From a virus (Duplodnaviria > Caudoviricetes): DNA of 64,000 nt. Numbering within the stretch: the stretch's first letter is position 1; each line of letters starts with the position of its first letter. Under the pieces are notes generated by a model that made no database searches, had not been told where the DNA came from, and saw nothing but the letters and a program-made list of their open reading frames with translations. Shown here in pieces: positions 4,732-20,800 of the stretch. Both the position numbers and the translations under genes were made by a program. Location: positions 67,490 to 131,489 of IMG/VR virus record IMGVR_UViG_3300001598_000001, one strand, 5' to 3'.

Positions 4732-4805
4732 GTTGATTTAATTTAATGGAAGAATAGTTGTTCAGTAAACAATGCACATTGGTTCGATTCCAATAATCAA
4801 CGCCA
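4732..4805 (+). tRNA. tRNA-Thr(AGT), divergent (C33, G73)
   Basis: Acceptor GTTGATT/AATCAAC, anticodon arm GTTGT-TC AGT AA-ACAAT, T arm ATTGG-TTCGATT-CCAAT, encoded CCA. Confidence 0.6.
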
Positions 4806-4822
4806 TTATAAAAAAAATACAC

Positions 4823-4851
4823 TTGACAGTTTTTTAATTACCCAATATAAT
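4823..4851 (+). promoter_or_regulatory. Sigma-A-type promoter with CCCA before -10, driving RNA island
   Basis: TTGACA-17 nt-TATAAT. Confidence 0.8.
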
Positions 4852-5058: not shown

Positions 5059-5153
5059 AGGGGCTTAGTGTAGTGGTAGCACACGAGACTTCAAATCTCG
5101 GGTAACAGCGTCCAAAGCTGCGGGTGTGGGTTCGATTCCTACAGCCCCTGCCA
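5059..5153 (+). tRNA. Opal-decoding tRNA-Trp(TCA) with 25-nt variable region
   Basis: Acceptor AGGGGCT/AGCCCCT, G73, CCA; anticodon arm CGAGA-CT TCA AA-TCTCG; T arm GTGGG-TTCGATT-CCTAC. Confidence 0.9.
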
Positions 5154-5161
5154 TATATTTA

Positions 5162-5694
5162 AACAGTATAAATTTAAATATATTAGATCTCGGTGTAAAC
5201 CAGACAATCTGGCCGAGAGTTACAAAGTAATGGATAGGTTTAGAGGATACCCTAAACTGAAAACCAAGATTATTATAGTGATATAATATGAGAAGATACC
5301 AACTAGTATCAACAACGGGTAACGTGCTAATATAATATCGGAGATAAAACCTAAATCCAACGCTCTCGTAATAACTCGTCCATATGCTCATACCAGGTGG
5401 TGCTGATGGTCAACATATGGAAAAACCAACAAGAGAGAATGCCTTGATGTCTAGTAAGTAGACTATAAGTTGGGATAAGGACAAGTAGCTGAATGGCGGT
5501 TCGTATGAAAAAGTACATATTTCAAAATCTGAAAGTCGGTGAAAGTTAGAGGTACCCAGTCCTCTCGATGGTAAAAAGGGCAAGAAGCTTTATGGTCGCA
5601 ACTTAAAGCTCAGACTTGTTCTATTCGTAGTTTAACAATCAGATATTATAAGTGGTAAGACGAAGGTCTCTAATACATTTAAATTTATACTGTT
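5162..5694 (+). ncRNA. Large structured ncRNA (~530 nt), ROOL-like
   Basis: 26-bp terminal helix 5162-5187/5669-5694 with one mismatch; elevated GC, many internal hairpins, no credible ORF, adjacent to tRNAs; family name from size/context only. Confidence 0.6.
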
Positions 5695-5850: not shown

Positions 5851-6117
5851 ATGGATGAAAACAAAATTTTAACAGCAGTTGAAGCTCGTACATTAGTACA
5901 AAAATCAACAACATTAAGAAATCGTATTTACAAGTTTATTAATGAAGAAGCTCGTGAAGGTAGAACAACTCTTGAATATGGTCTTACTTATGAAGATTTT
6001 AATTTAAGACAAAGTTTAATCGCAGATTTAAGATCTAATGGTTACACTGTAGATTTAATTATTGAAGAACCATTTGATAGCGGTTTTGCTATGATGAAAA
6101 TTTCTTGGGCAGAATAA
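5851..6117 (+). CDS. Hypothetical protein, 88 aa
   Basis: TAAGGAGA RBS, open frame. Confidence 0.75.
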   Translation: MDENKILTAVEARTLVQKSTTLRNRIYKFINEEAREGRTTLEYGLTYEDFNLRQSLIADLRSNGYTVDLIIEEPFDSGFAMMKISWAE

Positions 6118-6138
6118 TAAATAATAGTAATAAATATC

Positions 6139-6190: not shown

Positions 6191-7402
6191 ATGAGTAAAA
6201 AAATTAAATTAAATGAAATGAAAAATGTGGATCGTAAATTAGAAACTCCACTATTTGGAAGAAATGCTTATGTGCAATTATCTCCAATATCACAATTTCT
6301 ATATGATATTACAATTGATTGTGTAGATTATGATTATGCTAATAATTATTTTAAGCAACGTCAGGTTCCAATCAATAATAGTGGTTGTAGTGTAGTTTGT
6401 ACCGATAATTTTACTGGCAGAGATTTAGATTGGTTTTACAATTGAGATTGTGAATTTTGGGTTCACACACCAGCATGTGATGGACGTTATGCCTCAAATG
6501 GTACAGCTAGTTCTGTTCCTGGTCTTACTAAACAAATGGTAGAAAGCGGGCAATATTTATCTGCTTACAATATTTTACCATTTTTTATGGTAGATGGTAT
6601 TAATGAATATGGTGTTTATTGTAGTACTAATGTTGTTCCTGAAGAAAAAGGTAATACTACTATAACTATACCTACTGAATCAAAGACAGCAGAAATTTCT
6701 ATGAATATGGTAGTACGTTATGTTTTAGATCATTATAAAACCGCTCAAGAAGCTGTTGAAGATTTACAAAAACATATAGCAATTTATAAAACCACTGGTT
6801 TAAAAAAAGTTGGATATGATGCTCATTATGAAATTCGTGATACACAACATAAATATGTAGTAGAAATTATTGATAATCAAGTTCAATATCAAGAACAACC
6901 TTATATTACTAATTTTCATTGTATAGGTGTTACTACTAATAGTGATGGAAAAGTTTACACTCCAGCCACTCAAGATGATAGTCACAATGCATATATTACT
7001 AATCATATTACCAAGCACGGTAGTGGACTAGAAAGATGAAATGTAATAGTTGATAATTACAATACAGCGGATAATAAAGAAAACATGGTTGCTTTAATGA
7101 AAGATTCTCTTAATTATAAAAAAGCATATAGTACTTTTGAAGAAGTATCTGACCCATTTTGGAATACAGAATTTGTAGGGGTTAACTCTCATGGAGATTT
7201 ATGTGTAGATAGTCCAGAGGCTGATTATGATTATATTAAACAATACACTGGACAGTTGTTTATTAATAGAAATAGAAATCAAGATAAAATTGGTACTTGA
7301 CATACCACTCACACTTGTATTTATGATCACATAGAACATAAAACATATTTTTATGATTCTAGCGAAGATGGTGTTGAACATATAATTACTTGAGATTTTT
7401 AA
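6191..7402 (+). CDS. Ntn-hydrolase (choloylglycine hydrolase / linear amide C-N hydrolase-like), 403 aa (TGA=Trp)
   Basis: GCS nucleophile site followed by TGRDLDW, DGINEYG motif; three track ORFs in one frame joined by TGA. Confidence 0.75.
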
Positions 7403-7418
7403 AATTTTCCATTATAAT
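7390..7418 (+). promoter_or_regulatory. Sigma-A-type promoter
   Basis: TTGAGA-17 nt-TATAAT, preceded by TCCAT. Confidence 0.65.
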
Positions 7419-7431
7419 AATATTAGATAAA

Positions 7432-7617
7432 AATAGGTGAAAACATACATAACTTAACAATAGACCCTATAATAGTATAAGATGGTAAGAGGCTTGTACT
7501 GATAGTTATGACGAAAGTATAATTCAAGATGGAGATTAGATCCTCGTTCAATTATATCACATCGGTGAAAAGGGTTTCCCTATATTAGGTAGACAAACAC
7601 CGTAAGAAACATCTATT
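7432..7617 (+). ncRNA. Putative structured ncRNA (~185 nt), unassigned
   Basis: Terminal pairing AATAGGTG/CATCTATT, internal GACCCT/AGGGTT; begins just after promoter; no ORF. Confidence 0.35.
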
Positions 7618-7679
7618 ATTTGGTGAACTGTTGAAGGTTTTAAATGTAAGTTAGGTTGACGTGCTTACAGCCAAATCAT

Positions 7680-7752
7680 GGGGATGCGTAGATCGTCTGT
7701 TATATTCATGTATAACAAAAACAAGAGGGGCAGCTCCTCTTCATCTCCACCA
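7680..7752 (+). ncRNA. Ala-accepting tRNA-like RNA resembling an isolated tmRNA tRNA-like domain
   Basis: GGGGATG/CATCTCC with G3-U70, A73, CCA; no D-stem; T-loop GGCAGCT; 7-bp TGTTATA/TATAACA hairpin where the mRNA domain would be. Confidence 0.6.
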
Positions 7753-7951: not shown

Positions 7952-8287
7952 ATGAAATATTATAGTGAAAAAGTAAAAAAACTTTTTGATTCTGAAAAAG
8001 AATTAGAAACAGCAGAAAAAGAATTTGATGCTAAAGAATTAGAAGAAAAGAAAAAATTAGAAGCTAAAAAAGCTAGAGCAACTGAAGTAGAAGATGCCTA
8101 TAAACATTCTATTGAAGTTAGAAAAGAAGCGCAAAAATTAATTGATGAAGCTGATAATGCTTATTATGATTTAAGAGATGCTTTTGTTAAAGATTATGGT
8201 TCTTTCCATATGACATACAAAGATTCTAGCGAAAAACCAGTTACATTATCTTCTTTTTTTGATATTTTTGATAAATTTTGGTTTTAA
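7952..8287 (+). CDS. Hypothetical coiled-coil protein, 111 aa
   Basis: CAGGAGG RBS, open frame. Confidence 0.8.
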   Translation: MKYYSEKVKKLFDSEKELETAEKEFDAKELEEKKKLEAKKARATEVEDAYKHSIEVRKEAQKLIDEADNAYYDLRDAFVKDYGSFHMTYKDSSEKPVTLSSFFDIFDKFWF

Positions 8288-8288
8288 T

Positions 8289-8730
8289 TATTAAAGTGGT
8301 GTTCCGCTACCATTAAAGGCGAATTATGATGATGAATTAAAATTGGTGAAAACAACCAACCATTTCTCAGGTAGAGATAGACTGAATCGTTAGCGAAGGA
8401 TAGGTCGAGAACAAGTGTGATAGCATGCATACCAGAGGACCGAATGAGGGTGCATGTGCTGGCTAGAGGCAGAGAGCCCTGAAGAATATGCCGATGAGGA
8501 ACTTGCAACTAACTTTGATATTTTATGTGGTTGAGAACAAGTTTAGGTAGATGCTGAATTCCACGTTATAGCGAGATTACAAAATCACGTGCGAACCCAT
8601 AAAGCAGCCAAAAATATCTCAATTCTTCTGAATGATCGTTGACGGTCTATAATAGATAGGACTTATAGAAGAGAGATTCAGCCAAGAGGTGTTTGTGAGA
8701 AGGAAAACTCACCCTATCAAATAAACCTCT
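8289..8730 (+). ncRNA. Putative structured ncRNA region (one or more RNAs)
   Basis: GC-enriched non-coding stretch; TATTAAAGT/ACTTTGATA closes 8289-8520; hairpins e.g. TAGCATGCAT/GTGCATGTGCTG, GAGGT/ACCTC. Confidence 0.4.
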
Positions 8731-8849
8731 CAAATTGGAGCAAAGTAGTGACCACTTACGGCATAGCGGAATGGACTGCTGTATAAAAGGTCGGTGTTAT
8801 TCCTACCCGCTTTCATGGCAATGCAAAAAGGAATTACGTTTTAATATAT

Positions 8850-8923
8850 CGCAGGGTAGAGTAGTGGTTACTCAGTGGGCCCATAACCCACTCAGGCGAG
8901 TTCAATTCTCACCCCTGCAACCA
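8850..8923 (+). tRNA. Initiator tRNA-fMet(CAT)
   Basis: C1:A72 mismatch, GGG/CCC anticodon stem pairs, loop CC CAT AA, CCA end. Confidence 0.9.
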
Positions 8924-9064: not shown

Positions 9065-12000
9065 ATGAAAGAAAAAATAATTGAATATACAAACCTTAGT
9101 GATATTGATTTTAGTAAAAATAGCACGTTATACAAAGATATTAGTAGTATGGATAAGAAAGTCCGTGCTTTTGACGCTAGATCCAATGAAATTAATGATA
9201 AAATAAGTAAAGAAATATTCAGAGACGCTTTAGTAAGTGGTGGTAACAATAGTATTTTAGATTCTTTACATGGTATAGAAAACCTATGTCGTAGTAACGG
9301 AATTCAAACTAAAGTAACAGTAACAAACGATGGAATTAGTTTAGTGGCTTATGATGAAAATAATCAAGTTGTACCAGTTATCTCTTATATGGCTGGTTCA
9401 GATGGATTAGTAATTCGTGATAATTTAGTAGTATTAGATTCTTTGTATTATAGTCAAAATAATGCCACTGGTAAATCTCAATTAATTAATGGAACAGTTG
9501 CTTATTTAAATGAGTTTAATAAAATTTTAAAAACTAATTGAAGTAAGTTAAAATCACAAAAACAAGATTTTAGTTCTATTTTACAGTTTGCTCGTAATGA
9601 AGCTAATAAACAAATTCCTATAACTAATCAAGGAACTTATAAATTTGTTGGTAATTCTGGAAAAGAGATTTTATCAAACTTAAAAAAACAAAAAAATGTT
9701 TTTAAAAACAAGAGTAAGAGTTTCGATGTTGATCCTAGTGCGTTTTGAGAAAATATTATTTATGACACTGTTAGAAAATCGGTAGCTCCTGGGGTTACTT
9801 CACAAGATCAATCTTGAGCACAAAAAGAACGTGAAATTCGTCCAATAATAGAAAAACTTGCTAAAGAAGCTTCTAAACTACCTTCTGTAAAACAAGCAAC
9901 TCGATTATTTAGTGAAGATTATGATATTAGAAAATTAATTACTAAAGACAGTAATCTAAAAGCTAAGATTATGGAAGCGGTTAGATTTTTTTCTGAAATT
10001 ACTTGAAATCAATCTAATATGTCTGAAGCTGATGCCCATAAAGGTAAAGTGGCAATATTTGGCGATAGTAGAACTGGTATTTCTGGTCAAGAATCAATTA
10101 CTAAAAAAGATCAAGGTAGTTCATATTTAAAACGAACTAAAGCTGGTCAACACAATACTTATGCACATGTAGCTGGTGGTATTTTAACTTCTAAAACAGG
10201 TTTTAAAGGTAATTCTGCAGATTATGATTTATTTACTATTGCTCCTGTTGAATCTGAAGCAATTTCTGAAGGTATGAATAATATGTTTAAAGCAGCCGTA
10301 GAACACGAAAAGGTTGCTCGTGAAAACATTAAAAAATACGGAGAAAATATCAAACACAAGGCAGAATTAATTAAAATATTAAAAAATAAACTTGATACTA
10401 TTAAAAAAGATGACTATAGTGATTTAGAACATGAAATGATTTCTCAAATTATGGAAATTTATGAAAATTATCGCACTGTTCATGATACAGGTAATAATCA
10501 AGTGCAATTTGATACTCCTGAAGAATTTAGAGATTATTTAGTTAATGAAGCTAATAAACGTTTTGCTCAAAAAGTAAAACAACGCAAAACTTATAATAAA
10601 GAAAGAAAGAAATCTTTAACTAGTGAAATTGCTGATATTAAAGTTGCAAACACAGACGCTAAATATAAACAAGCAGCAGCTAAAGCTTATCATAAAATTA
10701 ATGAAGAATCTGTAGAAGATTTTGCTTTAGACAAATTGCGCAAACAATATCATATGGATTTTAATCCTAATAAGCCTCATTCTGATGTGTTGGATGATCA
10801 AATCATTATAGTTAAAGAAGCATTAGCTGAAATACAAACACAATTAATGCAACAACAAGTTTTTACAGAAAAAGATATTAAAAAAGCTATGAAAGCTGGA
10901 AATTATCAAATTTCTGAAGAAGCTGTGTTGGCTAAAATAAACGAACAACGAAAACAGCAAGGTTTAGATCCTGTTTCTATGAAAGACCTAAAAGTTGGAC
11001 TTAATAAAGAAAAAGGTGTATTTACAGCACAATATACTGAAGATTTTATTATCAAAGAAGGAACTAAATTATTAAATTATTTAGGTAGAGAACGTTGATC
11101 TTCTTCAAGTTTACCAGCAGATGTAATGAAATCTGTCTTAAAAGCACAAGCACGATTAATTGCTTCTGTTAAATCTGGTACTAATGATGTTAATGACACT
11201 AAATATCAAAAAGAATTTGCAAAAGCCAATTCTATGTATTTTGATTCCAATGATAATCTTAAAGTTGCAGGCGTTAGTGGAATTAGTTCATCTATTAAAG
11301 GTGAAAAATTTTATGGTTGAAGCCAAGGTGTTATGTCCTATGCTTTAGGTGAATTGTTTAATCAAAGTTATAAAAAGAATATTTCTAATGGTCAAGAAAA
11401 AGCAGTAGCTAAGTCTGAAGCTATTAATAAAGTTCGTGAAAAATGAAATGAATCTGTAGATAAACTAGTCGCACAAGGACAATTAACTACAGAACAAGGT
11501 GAAAAATTTAAACAATTAGTTACAGGTGTTAATGAAAAAACTGGAAAAGTAAATTTTAATACTGATTCAAAAATTACAGATTTTGTTAATAAAAATTTAG
11601 TACATTACGTCAAGTTAATTAATACTGTTTACAAAGATAATACAGGCCGTAAACTTGGTACTTATAAAAATAATAAAAATGAAGGAGAAGTTTTTGAACT
11701 TGATCCTTATGCTTTATATGATATAGGTATTAATCCGTCTATAGTTGCCGAGGGAGATTGGGATCCACATAAGAGAGTTTCAATGGCTCATAATGAAAGA
11801 CAAATTAAAGAAAGAGAAAATGAACGTTTAGCAGCTATGGGTAAAGACGTCACTGTTGAAAGAGCTATGCTTGATGTTCAATATGAACAAGCTATTGAAA
11901 AAAATACTAAATATCAAAATAAATTAAAAGCTGTTAGAGACGCAGTTACTAATAATTTTAATGCTGATAGAATTGATGTTGAAGACAAAGATAAAGATAT

Positions 12001-15000
12001 CACAGCTATTGTAAATTTAGCTGATTTAAATAATGCTAAAAATGTTGAAAGAGATGTTATTGACCCTGCTACATTTAATTCTAAAGATTTTACTCAAACT
12101 AAAGAGGGTATTATTTGGACAGCACAACAAAATAAATATCAAGAATTATTAAATGAGTTTATTGATCCAAATAAAATTAAAGAAATTGAAGAATTGCGTA
12201 AAGCTAAAAAATATAAAAAAGCAAAAGAATTAGAGGTACTAGAACAACAAAGAGTACAAAAAGCCGTATTAGATAAATATAAAGTTGAAAGTGCCAAAGA
12301 TATTAAAATTGCTGGAAAAACTAATATTCAAGGATATTTAAATAAGAGTGTATCTGGATTAGATTATGATGCTATGACAGGAGAGCTTTTAGATCTTGCT
12401 GGATACGATATAGAACAAGATGAAAATGGCAATTATCGTATTAACAACACAGCAGACTATGAATATAATCGTAGTATTCTGAGATCTTATGAAAACGCTC
12501 TTAAAGAAGATATTTTAGAAGATAGACAAGCAAAATTTGGAACTGGAATTTATAAAGCTGGTCTTGAACGTGAGCGAGCTTACGTAGAGAAAAAAGGTTC
12601 GGAATTTGAAAAATTTGCTAAAAAAGAAAGAACACATAGTAAATTTTTAAAAACTAAAGATTTAAATAATGCTGAAAAAGATACATTATATACTAGTAAG
12701 AGTGATATTAATGAAATGATTTCTCAACGAGAGAATGAAACTGATGAGGAATATAATAAACTTATTAAAGGTATATACAAAGATACTTTAGGTGTTAATA
12801 ATGCTCCAAGAAGAAAACAAAATGAAACTCTTCAAGATTATAATACTCGTATTAAAGATAGTGTATTAAAAGCTATTATAGAAGACGATAAAGATCTTAT
12901 CATGGATGTCACTAGAGATCCTAATAATACAGCTATGGCTGGTATGAAAGTTAAAATTAAACATTTAACTGGTATAGGCGAAGGTGTAGTTGGAGGAGAT
13001 CCAGCTTTAATTAAATTTCTTAAAGGTGACTATGATGGTGATAGATTAGGTTTAGCTTTAGATGCTGATGGTAATATTATTGGTGCTGTTCGTATGACTC
13101 AAAAACAAGTTGACGAACATATGCTAAAAGAAAGAATATTAGCGGAAGAAGATGCTGAAGTATTACGTTTTATTACCAATCAAAAAGGTGGAAGTACTTT
13201 ACCGTCTGCCAGCACAGCTATTAAAATAGACAAAAATGGTAAAAAATATATTGAAAATACTACGTTAGATGTAGCTGATTTAACAGGACTTGAACGTAAT
13301 GCTTCAACACAATTATTATCATTTGAAGCAAAACAAAATAAGGATGACTATGTTGGACTATATTCTAATTTTAGAACTAGTGCAACTACTGGATTAGAAG
13401 AAAAATTTGGAAAAGGTTTAGGTAAAACAGTAAATACTGCTAAAACTGGATTAGCTATTGAAGCCTTATCTTTATTATTGGCTCGTCCAGAACAAGCTGC
13501 AATTTCTTCTAAACACTTGAAAAATTTAGCAGCCACTGATCCTGAATTATTTAAACAGTGATTTGAATGAGAAGAAAATGAAAATGGTGAACTTATTCAT
13601 AAAAAAGATGAAAATGGCAATGTTATTTTCAAACAAGCTTATTTAGATCGTTATGAAAAATTAGCTAAAGATTTAAAGAATTCTGATAATTGAAACAGTG
13701 AAACTCAAAGAGAAGCATTATTACAAGAAATGGTTAATCTTGGAATGATTGAAGGTAGTGGTAAATTTACTGACGATCAATTCTTTGGTGAATTTTGAAA
13801 ACTTGCTAATACTGAATTAGGACGTAAAGGTTTAACTGGTATTAACAAACGTTATAATAAATTATACGGAAAAGATGGTAAATTAAAAGCTGGTGCTGAT
13901 TTAAGTATCATGGATCTTGATTTTATCAGAGATATGTTAAATTGGTTATCAGTTCAAAGTGCAGAACTTGCTCCTAATGAAACATTGGGACATATAGTAA
14001 CTACTGGTAGACAATCTGCTCTTGATAAACAACGTGTTTATGATCAAAAAAATTTAATTGAAAAACCAACTGAAAAACAAATCAAAGAACACAAAGAATC
14101 CTTGGGTAAAGATGTCGAAGTAGAAATTCTTAAATCTATTAATTTATTAATTGATACTATTAGACAGTCTAGTGGAGTCATTGCTCAAGCAGCAGGTATT
14201 AGTGGTGGTAATGGAAATCGTTTTGCTTATAATATTTCTAATATTACAGATAATAATAAGAGAAATGTTTTAGCTGCTGCATCCAGAGCTGGTGGCTATA
14301 CTAATAAAATTACACCTACTGAGATTGCTCGAGTGAATGCTCGTAGTGGGGATAAAATTTATAGTAATTGAGATGAAATAATTAAAATTTTAGAAGATCC
14401 TACTGTAGATGTTAAAGAGAAACAACGTATTATTGGTCAAATGTCCGATGCTGACAAAAATTGGGCATTAGCCACTCGTCGTGGTAAATTAGTTCACCAA
14501 TTTAGTGAAGATCAACGTTTAATTGAAAAATATAATTTAACTAACGTAGATCCAAATAAATGAAATGAAACATTAATTAATCAATTTAAAAACACCAATG
14601 ATATCAATGAAAGAAAAGAAATTTCTCAATTTTTAGGTATTTTAAACAAAAAATCTGACGAATTAAATCATGAAAATGGTGGTTTTGTAAAACAATATAA
14701 AGAATTTAGTGAATTAAGTAAAATTTTAGATATCAAAGATACAGATTGATTATCTAAAATTATAGCATCAGCTCAAATTTTAAATAAAATGTCTTCCAAT
14801 GAAACAGTTATTGGTAAAGAAGTTGGTATGCATAATTATATTAATGTTAATGGTGAAGATACTGTTGAACATGGATATATTGACCAAATTACCAGAGCGG
14901 CTGTTAAGAAGGCCCAAACAGATATTAATGGTGAAAAATATGAAGTAGATGCTAATCGTTATACAATGGAAGATTTAAAAACTACTTCTGGAACAGGGGT

Positions 15001-18000
15001 TGATCTTTCATTAAAAGACGCAGAACAAGTTCTTCGTTATATTAATTATGGTAGTCAGGCTAATAAACAGTTTAAAGAGGAATTAGGTGGACTTGCAAAA
15101 GTTCCTACCACAGCCAAAGAGTTAAAAGATTTTTTAGCCAATGAAAAAGATTTAAATAAATATGCTGCAATTCGTCAATTTGTTGATGATATTGAAGAAA
15201 ATGGTGGGGTACTTACTGACGATCAAGTTCAAATGTTAGCAGATAAAAATGCTATTTTTGAAGGACGTATTAAAAAAGTAGATACTCAAACAAATGAAGC
15301 TGCATCGTATCGTATTGGTGCAAGTCAAGCTAAAGAACTTATTCAAAGATCACAAAACGGAGAAGATATTAGTGGATTTTTAGGTAATTTTGTTGAAGAA
15401 AGACAATTTTATCAAGCTGGTAATTCTGTTTCTGAACTTAAAGAAGAAATTACTTTATTAAAACAAAAATATGAATTACAGTTAAAAATTAATAAAGCTT
15501 TATTAGAAGGAAAAGATAATGAAGCTGCTGTTCTACAAGAACAAGAAAAAGAAGTTGATCTAAAACTTAAAGAAGCTCAGAAATCAACTAATAAAATTGC
15601 TGACACCACAGAAAGAAAAAAATATGTTCGCGATACTCGTAAGGAGATTGAAGAACAATTACAAAAAGAAAATGATCAAGCTTTAAAGTTGTTACAAGCT
15701 CAAAAGAATGATAAACAAAAAGCTGGTCCTAATAAAAATATATTAGCTCGTTTGAGCACGGGATTTGATGAGGGAATTACTCAACGTTTGAATCGTGCAT
15801 TTAGTGGTTATGCTATTTTTGCTAAACTTACTCAAGGGATCCAAACCGTTAAAAAGAATGTTATTGATTTAGATAAAGTTTTGACTAATCTTCGTATTGT
15901 CACTCAACAAAATGAAGAAAGTACTCGAAACTTGATTAAGGGGTATTCAGAACTTGCAGGAGAATTAGGTGTGTCAACAACAGCTGTTGCTACAGCTGGA
16001 CAAGAATGGCTAAGACAAGGCTATGATATAGCAGAAACCAACAAATTAATTGAAGCTTCAACTAAATTAAGTATTTTAGGTATGATGTCTTCTGCTGATG
16101 CTGTTAAATCATTAACCAGTGCAATGAAAGGATTTAAAATGGAATCCTCAGAAGCAATAGATATAGTAGATAAATTAACCAAATTAGATGTTAATGCTGC
16201 TACTACTGCTGGTGAAATTGCTAGTGCATTATCAGAATTTGCAAACGCTGCAAGTTTAGGTGGCTTAAATATTGATCAAGCTTCAGCAATGGCAACTACT
16301 ATCATGGATGTTACTCAAAATAGTGGTTCTCAAGCTGGTAATGCTCTGAAAATGATGTTATCAAGATTTGGTAATGTTAAATCTGGTGCCTATTCAACTC
16401 TTAATATTTCTGGCGATGCAGATACGGAAAGTGCTAGTCTAAACGATGTAGAAAAGGTTTTAAAGAATATTGGTGTATCATTAAGATCATCAAATTTAGA
16501 ATTCCGTTCATTTAGCGAAGTTTTAGATGAAATTAGTGAAAAATGGGTTAATTTAGATAATGTTAGTAAGAATGCAATTGCAACTGCTTTTGCTGGAACA
16601 AGACAACGTGAATCTTTCCTTGTCTTGATGGAAAACTATGATAAATATCAACAATTACTAAAAGTATCTGAAAGTGCCGCTGGAACTTCTGAAGAAAAAA
16701 TTAAATCTTATCAAGAATCTATTGCTGCTTTACAAGAAGAAATAAAAGCCGCATGGGAAAATTTAGCTAATAATAAATCTATTTCTGACTTCTTAAAACT
16801 TATACTTAGTACTACAACCCAACTTATTAAATGATTACCGTGAATAGTTAATATATTAAAACCATTATTAGCTACTAAAACAATTAGTATCGCTTCCAAC
16901 TTTTTTGGTAATGGGTTAAAAAATGGATTTTCTGGTTTATTTAAAAATGTTACTGCTACACAAAAGAATACAACAGCAATTGAAAAATTAACTACAACTT
17001 TAGAAAATACTTCGAACACTTCTGGAAACGGCGTATATAGTCGTAATAATATTGCAGTTGGTGCTGCGGGTATTACATCTACAGGTGCATTAACTTATGG
17101 TAATAAATCTGTCGGTCTTGGTGATGATGGTAAGTATTATTATTTAAAGAACGATGGTTCTTTATCTAAAAGATCAGTTAGTGCTGCGGGACAAAAAGAA
17201 ATTCAACAAACCGCAGAAAATAATAAAAAGCTTAAAAAAGCTGGTAGTTGAAGAAATAAAACGGGTGGTGAAAAAGTTGCTGCTGGTGCAGCTGCTGGAT
17301 TATTAGCTGGGTTAACAGCTGATACCGATACCAAAGATATATATGGTACAGGAGACACAACCGTTAATTCTACATTACAAACTATAGATAAAGTTGCTAC
17401 TGGTGCGGTAACTGGTATAGCTACAGCAATTGGCGGACCTATTGTTGGGGGTATTGCTAATATATTAATGGAAGTTGCTACAAAATATGCAATGCCATGA
17501 TTAGAAAAAATTTTCTTCAAACGCGATTTTGAATTAAAACTTTTAAATAAAAGTATTAATGAAGCAAAAGAAAATATTGAAAAAATTAATAATATTCAAA
17601 ACTCTTTAAATACTTTAGTAGAATTATCAAATAAAAACATTTTAATTGGTGAAGATTATACCAAAGCTGTTGATGAATTCAATAAAATATCTGCAGCACT
17701 GGTTGATGACCCTAAAACACTTAGTGTTTGAAATGAAATTTTACATAATACAGATGATTTATTAGATGGTGTAGATAATGAAACGCTTTCTTTGTCTACT
17801 TTACGAGAAGCTTATTTAACTGGTAGTGCTCAAGAGAGAGCTGAAATAGCTACTGCTTTACGTGCATCATCAGAATTAGTTGAAGCTAGAGAATTCCAAC
17901 GAACTTATTCGGCAAAAATGTATGAAGTTAATGAAACTATTAATAGTGCTCGTCAATATGATGCTGAATTTTTAGAGAAAAACGGAGTTTTAGATCAATA

Positions 18001-20800
18001 TAAACAATATGCTAAAAATAAATATGCACAAATGAGTGATGCCGAAATTATTAAACAATTTGGCAGTGTTGCAAGCGAATTAAAGTATGGAATAAATTGA
18101 CTTGGTGGTTGGACAAATTTTAACACTAATAAAATGACTTCTTTAGACGTTGTTGCTCAGGAAGTTAGAAAATATTTAGAAGATAATGTTGATAAAACTT
18201 TCCAAGACAATTTTAACTCTGATGTTCATTTACGCGAAGAATTATCTACTTTATTAAATGAAAGTGTTCTTGTTGATTATTGAAACCAAACTATTGAAAG
18301 TTTAACTAAACAATTGGAACAAGGTGAAAATGTTAGTGAAGAACTACGCAAAGCTAATAACGAACTAAACAAAGTTCAAAATGCTATTAATTTAAAACAA
18401 AACTATACAGATGAAATTAATTATAAATATGCTCAAGCAGCATTATCTGCTTCTGGTTTAGAAAATTTAACTCAAGCACAATTAAATAATATGGGTTATA
18501 AAGATAAACTTAATAAAATTGCAGAAAATATGGAGTCTTATGGTTATTCTGTTTATAATTCTGATGGTGTGTTATCAGCTCAAGCTCAAACATATATTGA
18601 AAATGCTATTAGAAGTAATAGTAAAATATATGGATCTGTTAGTGGTCAAGTCTATTCATTAGCTGAAGTTTTAAACAAAGATAATGAAAATTTATTTAGA
18701 AATTATCAAGAAATTCTATGGCAGTGATCAGAAGCTTTGGGTGTAAGTGTTGATGAATTAGATGATTTAAAAGATACTTTAGGAGATATTACCTTAGCTC
18801 AAGTTTTAAAAACTCCAGACGAAACACGTCAAAATATTTCTGAACTAACTTCTATGTTCACATCTATTTCTTCTTCTACTGGTATTACCGCTGAAAATAT
18901 AGAGAACATTATTACAAAGTTCCCACAATTATTACCTTATGCAAGTAGTGTTGGTGATTTAATTGGGGGGTTAACCAAAGGCATAGAACAGTATAGTAAA
19001 TTATATGCATATCAGATCACTAATCAAATTTTAAATAGTGAATCTGTACTTTCAGATATTCAAAAAAATATGAGAGAGGGTACTGTAGATGTTGATATAA
19101 GTGAAGATGATCAAAAACAATTATATGAAACATTGTTATCTAACTATTCATTTGGTAATGGAAGTGTTTTAAATGATATGCTTGGTTTAATATGGGGTAA
19201 TGCTGAAGAAAACGGTATAAGTGAGGAAAATCAAGAAAAATTACGAACTATTGTAGAATCTTATTTACCAGATATAGAAAATACGCTTGAGCGAGATTCT
19301 ATTAAGCAACAAATAGATTATCAACAAAAATTATTTGATCAACAAATTAATAATTTACAAGAACAAAAAGAAATGTTAGATAATATAAATCATCAACGTG
19401 AGTATGAAAATAAATTAATCGAAGCTAAACTCAAATTAGAAAATTCTCAAAAAGAAAAGAAAAGAGTTTGAAGATCTGGAGTTGGTTGGACTTATGAAGC
19501 TGATCAAAACAGTATTTTAGAAGCCCAAAAACAATTAGAAGATGTTGAAAATGAAAAGAACGTCTCTAAAATTGATCAAGAAATTCAATTATTGAATTCA
19601 CAAAAAGAGTTATTAGCTAATATTGCTAGTAGTGAAGAATTTGAAAATATGCGAGATTCGTGAAAAGGTTGGTCTGAACAAATGAAGCTTTATAATGAAG
19701 ATCAAGAAACCATAATCACTAATTTATCAACTTTATATAGTTCAATTAGCAAAATTTCTACTAAGGATATAGCTGAAGACATAGCTGATGCTGGAGTAAA
19801 TAATGCTGATGAAAAATTAAATACATTAGATACTTTATATAATACAGCTCAATCTTATATAACTGGCGAAAATAAAAATGCTCCAACTACAGTAACTGCT
19901 TCCCAAGAATATGCAGATTGAGAAAATAATCGAAATAATGCTCTAACAGCTTATCAAACAAAAGCCAATGAGTATAAGAACGTTATTACTCAAGATTGAC
20001 AAACCAAACACTCAGATCATGCAGCCATTATGAAAGCTTCTCAGCTTCATAATCAACAAGATACTATCATGATTGATGGAAAAGCCTATACTGTTGGCAA
20101 TCAACCATTAAGTGACACAGATCCTTACTATCAATGAGTACAAGATGACCTTCGCGCAGGCGAAAAAGGCCCTCAAGACAGTAATGGTAAGGGTAAAGGT
20201 AAGTATGTTAAAGTATTTGATCCAAAAACAAGTACAGAGACAAACGAAGATGGAATATTAAATTATTCTCGAAGTAAAAGTAAAACATATGGAGAGGTTA
20301 ATGGTTCTGATGATAAAAAAGATTATAGTAGTTTAGTGTTATCAGATGTGGCAGCAAGTTTGAGTGATGGTACTATTTTAAGTAGTGAAAGTGGAACCGT
20401 AGAATATGTTATGGTTATGAACCATCAACTTAGACAATTAGATCCGAAGGCCAAAGGAACTTTAGATTTAAATAGTCATGGCGTTTTATTGAATGAATTA
20501 GGAACAGAAGCAATTGTAACACCTCAAGGTACAATTACAGCTCTTCCTTCTCACTCAGGTATTGTGCCAGCTGATATTACTCGTAATTTATGAGAATTAG
20601 GAGAAATTTCTCCTACACTTACACATTTGCTTGATCATTTGAATAATCAAATGGTTCCTGGAAAGAGTGTATTTGGTAATGATGAATCATTTAATATTAA
20701 TACTATTAATATGACAGTTAATGCTGATAATAGTTTTGATGCTCAAAAATTTATTGAGAGTGTTAGACAACGCGCAGCTTTAACAAAACATAATCGTTAA
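9065..20800 (+). CDS. Giant tape-measure protein, 3911 aa (TGA=Trp), with N-terminal RNAP-like and central PD-(D/E)XK-like domains
   Basis: Eleven track ORFs share one frame separated by TGA; TP901-type TMP core (LDKVLTNLRIVT...AGQEWLRQG...AFAGTRQRESFLVLM); VTRDP...GDYDGD at ~12908-13042; C-terminal NELGTEAIV motif. Confidence 0.9.

Follow-up and report, generated by a model that had tools for sequence, protein, structure and literature searches.

The segment from position 7680 to 7752 on the plus strand of the window very probably encodes a functional, tag-less tmRNA homologue that consists of the tRNA-like domain (TLD) only. The window is the whole stretch of 64,000 nucleotides that was analysed. 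It makes up the right half of a viral record that is complete, measures 131,489 bp, carries direct terminal repeats, and has a G+C content of 29%. An earlier note on this DNA had described the segment as an alanine-accepting, tag-less TLD-only tmRNA. This identification is upheld by a D-region motif and a T-loop that are common to the element and to full-length tmRNAs.

The mini-tmRNA gene (7680-7752, +) is 73 nt long, with the CCA end encoded, and all of its parts lie on the plus strand. The acceptor 5' strand GGGGATG (7680-7686) pairs with positions 7742-7748 at 7 of 7 positions, including G3:U70. It is followed by an unpaired D region of 11 nt, CGTAGATCGTC (7687-7697), by a hairpin of 7-8 bp (TGTTATA, loop TTCATG, TATAACA; 7698-7717), and by the linker AAAAC (7718-7722). 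The T arm (7723-7741) comprises a 6-bp stem (AAGAGG/CCTCTT) and the non-canonical loop GGCAGCT, and directly adjoins the acceptor 3' strand. The last segment (7742-7752) contains this strand, CATCTCC, then A73 at 7749 and the encoded CCA at 7750-7752. As the T stem has 6 bp and not 5, acceptor and T arm would stack over 13 bp. The alanine identity set is complete in the acceptor, namely G1-C72, G2-C71, G3:U70, G4-C69, and A73. The 36 nt that separate the T arm from the acceptor 5' strand form a single hairpin. An mRNA-like domain with resume codon and tag ORF is absent, as are pseudoknots, and ARAGORN detected no tag peptide at the element under default or lenient settings. The fold likewise has no D or anticodon arm and no Ala anticodon, and in place of a canonical T-loop (the GUUCGAAUC type) it carries GGCAGCU on the 6-bp stem. 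The anatomy outlined in the earlier note was thus recovered feature by feature at exactly 7680-7752 (+), the 6-bp T stem being a refinement.

Folding of the element with ViennaRNA resulted in a minimum free energy of -23.6 kcal/mol (z = -3.6), which was equalled by 0 of 200 shuffled sequences. The three-way junction is both the minimum-energy and the centroid structure, and the fold is unchanged when the entire 651-nt intergenic region is folded. Based on base composition and both strands, the combination of GGGG, a 7-bp acceptor with G3:U70, and ACCA is expected about 0.0014 times per genome. This expectation drops to about 5e-6 once the abutting 6-bp hairpin is included. A structural scan of about 282 kb, covering the window genome and related phage loci, yielded nothing comparable outside the tRNAs called by ARAGORN. 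The arrangement at 7680-7752 is not due to chance.

Standard detectors respond weakly to the element. ARAGORN made no call at 7680-7752, even at a lenient threshold, and the Rfam tRNA model had no match there. The comparison with the Rfam tmRNA model that the earlier note had proposed gave a divided answer. A match to RF00023 spans exactly 7680-7752, but its 14.6 bits fall below the gathering score of 47, and only the acceptor stem and ACCA are aligned. The phage's own tRNA-Ala(GGC) reaches 30.1 bits on the same model, so the Rfam tmRNA score does not by itself support the identity. The D region was left unaligned by the model; a stemless D-loop with the conserved tmRNA motif (of the ...GGAUUCGAC type) is present in it. 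For RF02544, no match was listed at E up to 10, in a search in which overlaps within the same clan are suppressed and a weaker match could be hidden. Other readings of the region were discarded. No convincing ORF extends over the element under code 11 or code 4, and a protein-coding region was ruled out under both. A minus-strand intrinsic terminator composed of the T arm and a T run would have no minus-strand gene to terminate. A permuted or two-piece tmRNA was suggested by a lenient ARAGORN "tmRNAp" call at 7298-7560, which was one of 11 low-threshold calls and had no Rfam support.

The family with the T-loop GGCAGCU was collected from viral, genome, and metagenome collections using the pattern GGGGCAGCTCC-N7-CTCCACCA, which describes the T-loop and the 3' end and leaves the 5' half, the D region, and the outer T stem free. 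After removal of chance matches, including L052, L065, and L067, 34 unique sequences were retained. Since the T-loop and CTCCACCA are both fixed in the search pattern, their invariance is by construction. Evidence independent of the pattern comes from the GGGG at the 5' end, the motif in the D region, the AC, the paired outer T stem, and the bodies of full-length tmRNAs. The acceptor with G3:U70, A73, and CCA is conserved in 34/34 sequences, with the 3' strand CTCCACCA fixed by the pattern. G-N-A-G...G is likewise found in the D region of all 34, and an AC precedes their T stem. This AC ends the 5-nt linker of the element, and full-length tmRNAs have GGAC at the same place. A further pattern, GGGGNNNCGNAGATCG...GGCAGCT, matched four known family members and otherwise only chance sequences in GC-rich contigs, and a covariance model, R1, added little beyond the pattern searches.

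Full-length tmRNAs form the majority of the family matches. In these RNAs of 343-468 nt, found in bacterial MAGs and phage contigs, the T-loop GGGGCAGCUCC is followed by CTCCACCA. Their 5' end reads GGGG-NNN and then CGUAG(G/A)UUCGAC, while towards the 3' end GGAC leads into a T stem of 6 bp with the GGCAGCU loop, and the acceptor 3' strand with ACCA closes the molecule. Carriers include MAGs of Bacillota and Eremiobacterota/Vulcanimicrobiota as well as low-GC phage contigs. One 412-nt member (L032) scores 88.9 bits on RF00023, and its tag frame, read by eye from the sequence, ends in ALAA. The GGCAGCU T-loop is therefore a trait of a genuine tmRNA lineage and no bar to TLD membership. The remark in the earlier note that GGCAG T-loops occur in some tmRNAs is confirmed by the same loop in full-length representatives such as L032.

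The best match to the element is a 386-nt tmRNA with 34-36% GC (L100/L104), whose TLD is identical at 47/53 positions. The two share the acceptor, the D-loop motif, the T-loop, the 6-bp T stem, and ACCA, and the only pair that differs between their T stems is a compensated change (C-G to A-U). The acceptor GGGGAUG/CAUCUCC is identical in the element and in the full-length tmRNAs of L100, L104, and L093. Over the 5' part, 17/19 positions agree between CGUAGAU-CGUC of the element and the full-length D-loop CGUAGAUUCGAC, the differences being a 1-nt deletion and a change of A to U. Compared to the full-length RNA, about 310 nt comprising P2, PK1, the tag frame, and PK2-4 are replaced by the hairpin of 7-8 bp, which is best described as a closed stub of helix P2.

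These comparisons also bear on a different origin of the element, namely a minihelix derived from tRNA-Ala and unrelated to tmRNA, either as a decayed tRNA-Ala of the phage's tRNA island or as a tRNA-like signal at which RNase P/RNase Z would process the transcript ahead of the gene at 7952-8287. The element does lie within an island of tRNA and non-coding RNA genes, its acceptor resembles that of the phage's tRNA-Ala(GGC), and distant relatives carry tRNA-Ala(UGC) upstream of a homologous small gene. In addition, tRNA-Ala and Ala minihelices share the acceptor identity set and ACCA with the element. However, the phage's own tRNA-Ala is identical to the element at only 33/53 positions, and the likeness is confined to the acceptor, whereas D region and T-loop match those of tmRNAs. 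The true tRNAs of the phage all have canonical T-loops. Unlike tRNA-Ala, the element has no D stem, anticodon arm, or canonical T-loop, and no tRNA is called by ARAGORN or Rfam. Moreover, family members in T7-like phages stand outside tRNA arrays. On these comparisons, a derivation from tRNA-Ala appears already largely refuted and is exceedingly improbable. The earlier note had named homology to a decayed ordinary tRNA-Ala as an outcome that would speak against its reading, and the homologues found are TLDs of tmRNAs (47/53 versus 33/53).

The TLD-only form of the GGCAGCU lineage is represented by seven distinct short forms of 73-162 nt, the element being the shortest and the others measuring 76-162 nt. 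Besides the window, they stem from IMG/VR viral contigs (L028, L030, L031, L033) and metagenome contigs (L083, L091). All keep the alanine acceptor and the T-loop as well as the D core G-N-A-G...G and the AC in front of the T stem, with a single hairpin in between whose length and sequence differ. The nucleotides G9, A11, G12, and G16 are invariant among them. One common fold is found in all short forms, with 91/91 base-pair cells standard across the seven sequences and six pairs altered on both sides. The observed covariation was matched by 0/500 shuffles, and pairing falls to 52-65% in each of the slid controls. Two short forms are intermediate in size, namely L033:1762-1892 (-) with 131 nt and L083:6470-6631 (+) with 162 nt, each with a GGCAGCT T-loop and an alanine acceptor. 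They may represent stages between full-length and minimal tmRNA, or may contain very short frames.

T7-like podophages with the standard code carry the short forms L028, L030, and L031 in their structural modules. One is placed between the gene in the scaffold position and the capsid gene, another just upstream of the large terminase gene. The carrier phages are not relatives of the window phage, as tblastn between them gave only two matches, both weak and unrelated. The T7-like contig L030 additionally contains a group I intron at 5914-6130 (+).

Short forms with invariant loops and compensatory exchanges recur among unrelated phages, and this also argues against an inert remnant, in which a full-length phage tmRNA was internally deleted and the 73-nt piece decays as a pseudogene. 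Full-length tmRNAs with a nearly identical TLD do exist (L100/L104), and the window locus has no retrievable close relative that would reveal purifying selection. Exact 18-mer searches, blastn against GenBank phages, and searches with the neighbouring proteins P0002 and P0122 found none, so selection at the window locus is deduced from the wider family. Yet all three helices of the element are perfect, and in each lineage a clean hairpin closes the deletion. Perfect helices and invariant loops across independent phage lineages indicate that neither a tRNA nor a tmRNA is decaying here. A published precedent also exists in mycobacteriophage DS6A (PMC4131195). Decay to an inert piece is consequently very improbable, and the reading as a functional TLD-only tmRNA is preferred.

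Some positions of this tmRNA homologue deviate from the parent lineage where SmpB would be contacted. At the base of P2, full-length members have GAC...GGAC (the full-length D-loop counterpart being GAUUCGAC...GGAC), while the element has GUC...AAAC and has lost one D-loop U. The GAC...GGAC motif presumably corresponds to G19-A20 and G333-A334 of E. coli tmRNA, which are important for SmpB binding. All short forms keep the G and the AC of this motif, and the remaining positions vary. Given the changes at the P2 base and the loss of the D-loop U, the SmpB affinity of the short form could be reduced. Throughout the lineage, A replaces the first G of the canonical D-loop GG, and it may be speculated that this A covaries with the altered T-loop position 55.

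In the window, the mini-tmRNA gene is located in a 549-nt non-coding gap within an island of RNA genes, all on the plus strand. The island contains a tRNA-like gene (4732-4802, +; 54.7 bits in Rfam, not called by default ARAGORN), a suppressor tRNA(UCA) of 95 nt whose variable arm is long (5059-5153, +), a ROOL RNA 12 nt past it (5165-5688, +; 233 bits), and an initiator-like tRNA-Met(CAU) (8850-8923, +). In the tRNA-like gene, the anticodon loop is TCAGTAA, with C for the expected U33; CCA is encoded, and lenient ARAGORN assigns the anticodon AGU. A perfect sigma-70 consensus, TTGACA-17-TATAAT, precedes the suppressor tRNA and ROOL at 4823-4851 (+). The tRNA-Met shows the initiator marks of a C1xA72 mismatch and a GGG/CCC anticodon stem, and the non-coding stretch 8292-8843 lies directly upstream of it. 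CCA is encoded and the T-loop canonical throughout the other tRNA genes of the window phage, so the encoded CCA of the element fits the style of the phage.

Judging from its tRNA(UCA), the window phage reads TGA as a sense codon, presumably for Trp. Under code 4, three code-11 fragments at 6191-7402 (+) fuse into a 403-aa Ntn-hydrolase (PF03417/PF02275) with four in-frame TGA codons. Downstream of the element, 9065-20800 (+) becomes a single ORF of 3911 aa with 28 in-frame TGA codons under the same code.

TLD-only tmRNAs have already been published as a kind. The mycobacteriophage DS6A encodes a "TLD only" (CDS-less) tmRNA (tmID 11587; Hudson, Lau & Williams 2014, PMC4131195; Hudson & Williams 2025, PMC11915505), which was located here at L044:28478-28556. 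As far as the literature search went, DS6A is the only phage with such an RNA in print. Like the window element, the DS6A element is phage-encoded, measures about 75-80 nt, and contains little more than the TLD. In both, G3:U70 marks the acceptor, the D-loop has no stem, and a T arm and a single short internal hairpin complete the molecule; both lack a tag frame and pseudoknots, and occur in a phage without its own SmpB. The DS6A element has canonical loops (T-loop UUCGAUU, D-loop GGUCGAC), carries GCAC ahead of its T arm, and does not include CCA in the gene. In the window element, the T-loop is GGCAGCU on a T stem of 6 bp, the D region reads CGUAGAUCGUC, and CCA is encoded. With blastn and covariance model R1, no similarity in sequence was detected between the two. 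They are independent truncations of different tmRNA lineages. CDS-less tmRNAs are further known from mitochondria of jakobids and oomycetes (RF02544) and from plastids of Mallomonadaceae (PMC11915505). The organellar RNAs resemble the element in their size of about 65-100 nt, the missing tag frame, and an SmpB that is encoded elsewhere, but they are vertically inherited and belong to other lineages. What is particular to the window element is the lineage with the non-canonical T-loop, the fact that standard tools overlook it, and the setting in a TGA-recoded phage.

The function of the element can be proposed by analogy and from its features. The RNA would be transcribed from an upstream sigma-70-like promoter, jointly with the downstream small gene. 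Two candidate promoters were located by consensus match only. The first, TAGACA-18-TATTAT (7590-7619, +; 10/12), lies about 60 nt upstream, and a start from it would leave a short leader for removal by RNase P. The stronger candidate is TTGAGA-17-TATAAT (7390-7418, +; 11/12) at the end of the upstream gene. RNase P would trim the 5' end, and the U at position -1 suits this processing. AlaRS substrates are defined by G3:U70, and a minihelix of acceptor and T arm can in principle be charged. Since the alanine identity set is complete, charging with alanine by the host AlaRS is predicted. No SmpB gene was found in the complete genome of the window phage, so that the RNA would have to be bound by host SmpB. 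Lacking a resume codon, it is unable to add a degradation tag. Its most likely effect would be to compete for SmpB, and perhaps also for stalled ribosomes, with the tmRNA of the host, with the consequence that fewer phage proteins from truncated or paused mRNAs are subjected to ssrA tagging and proteolysis. From the sequence we infer expression, processing, charging, SmpB binding, and an inhibitory effect of the element.

This decoy mechanism, i.e., competition for host SmpB or stalled ribosomes, is put forward tentatively, with a probability that falls a little short of even. In E. coli, a TLD molecule similar to that of DS6A is reported to be a strong inhibitor of tmRNA, whether chargeable or not, with titration of SmpB as a possible cause (PMC4131195, citing Mao et al. 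2009; PMC11915505). The decoy is favoured by this inhibition, which is the only experiment in print. As no sequence similarity to the DS6A element was detected, the experiment provides an analogy and no test of the window RNA.

Productive rescue without tagging was considered as a second, not very likely function. The mini-tmRNA, charged with alanine and acting together with SmpB and EF-Tu, would accept the nascent chain on a stalled ribosome. The peptidyl-RNA would then be released or hydrolysed, the ribosome freed, and the phage protein, extended by one Ala, would escape degradation. We know of no mechanism by which a peptidyl-TLD could be released when no tag frame supplies a stop codon. 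Untagged rescue is also a proposed role of the mitochondrial CDS-less tmRNAs. Mitochondria conserve these RNAs alongside an imported SmpB (PMC11915505), which is in line with such a function. Every short form strictly conserves the encoded CCA and the alanine identity set; a pure SmpB sponge would not need either, so that their conservation favours rescue. Furthermore, full-length tmRNAs that presumably work have the same acceptor and T arm, and the short forms are located in late or structural operons. Against this, the published TLD-like molecule reportedly inhibited tmRNA irrespective of charging (PMC4131195). The decoy and untagged rescue, the two functions ranked highest here, are also those that the earlier note had put forward.

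The earlier note had linked the mini-tmRNA to late phage mRNAs that stall at UGA. The distribution of the family does not support this link, as the same mini form occurs in standard-code phages. For the window phage itself it is possible, given the position in an island with a suppressor tRNA and upstream of the UGA-rich giant gene, but it is unproven and not general. In a broader and improbable scenario, GGCAGCU mini-tmRNAs would be a horizontally mobile module of late operons that silences host ssrA tagging or substitutes untagged rescue. In the TGA=Trp phage, together with the opal-suppressor and initiator-like tRNAs, the module would specifically shield UGA-rich late proteins, such as the product of the 3911-aa gene with its 28 UGA codons, from tmRNA tagging at UGA pauses. 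If this is true, anti-trans-translation is a part of phage stop-codon recoding. That the element neighbours an opal-suppressor tRNA in a phage with recoded TGA points to a possible link between ribosome rescue and stop-codon recoding.

Several aspects of the family are of wider importance. The TLD-only form has repeatedly emerged or been disseminated among phages without kinship, which range from T7-like podophages to a recoded phage of 131 kb. It also reveals an annotation gap, as the non-canonical T-loop of the parent lineage hides the form from ARAGORN and from Rfam thresholds. The family points to indispensable nucleotides of the TLD, which are the D-loop core G-N-A-G...G, the AC that precedes the T stem, and the loop GGCAGCU. 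Its members are natural variants with which it can be tested whether phages block or bypass host trans-translation.

The downstream small gene (7952-8287, +) encodes P0001, a small K/E-rich protein without a Pfam domain. Homologues of P0001 recur within tRNA/ROOL/RAGATH-33 arrays of large phages (loci L002-L021). No copy of the element was found near any of 26 loci with P0001 homologues, which are at most 60% identical, and ten records of P0001-sharing phages contained no full-length tmRNA and one more candidate short form. This candidate (L117:1501-1586, corresponding to G007:C1:148351-148436) is 86 nt long, pairs G3 with U70, carries ACCA, and has a T-loop of the canonical type; it obtains 36.4 bits on RF00023 without being called by ARAGORN. 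Its carrier, a phage of 166 kb, shares a P0001-like gene, and the RNA itself is probably a further mini-tmRNA of the TLD-only type. Two phages with the P0001 family contain twister-sister ribozymes (L019:5234-5313 and L020:3104-3183). Finally, a tRNA-like RNA of 115 nt with a canonical T arm and a 7-bp acceptor was observed at L123:1501-1615 (G006:C1:52269-52383, -). With C3-G70, no CCA, and no ARAGORN call, this RNA may be an intron-containing or otherwise aberrant tRNA.
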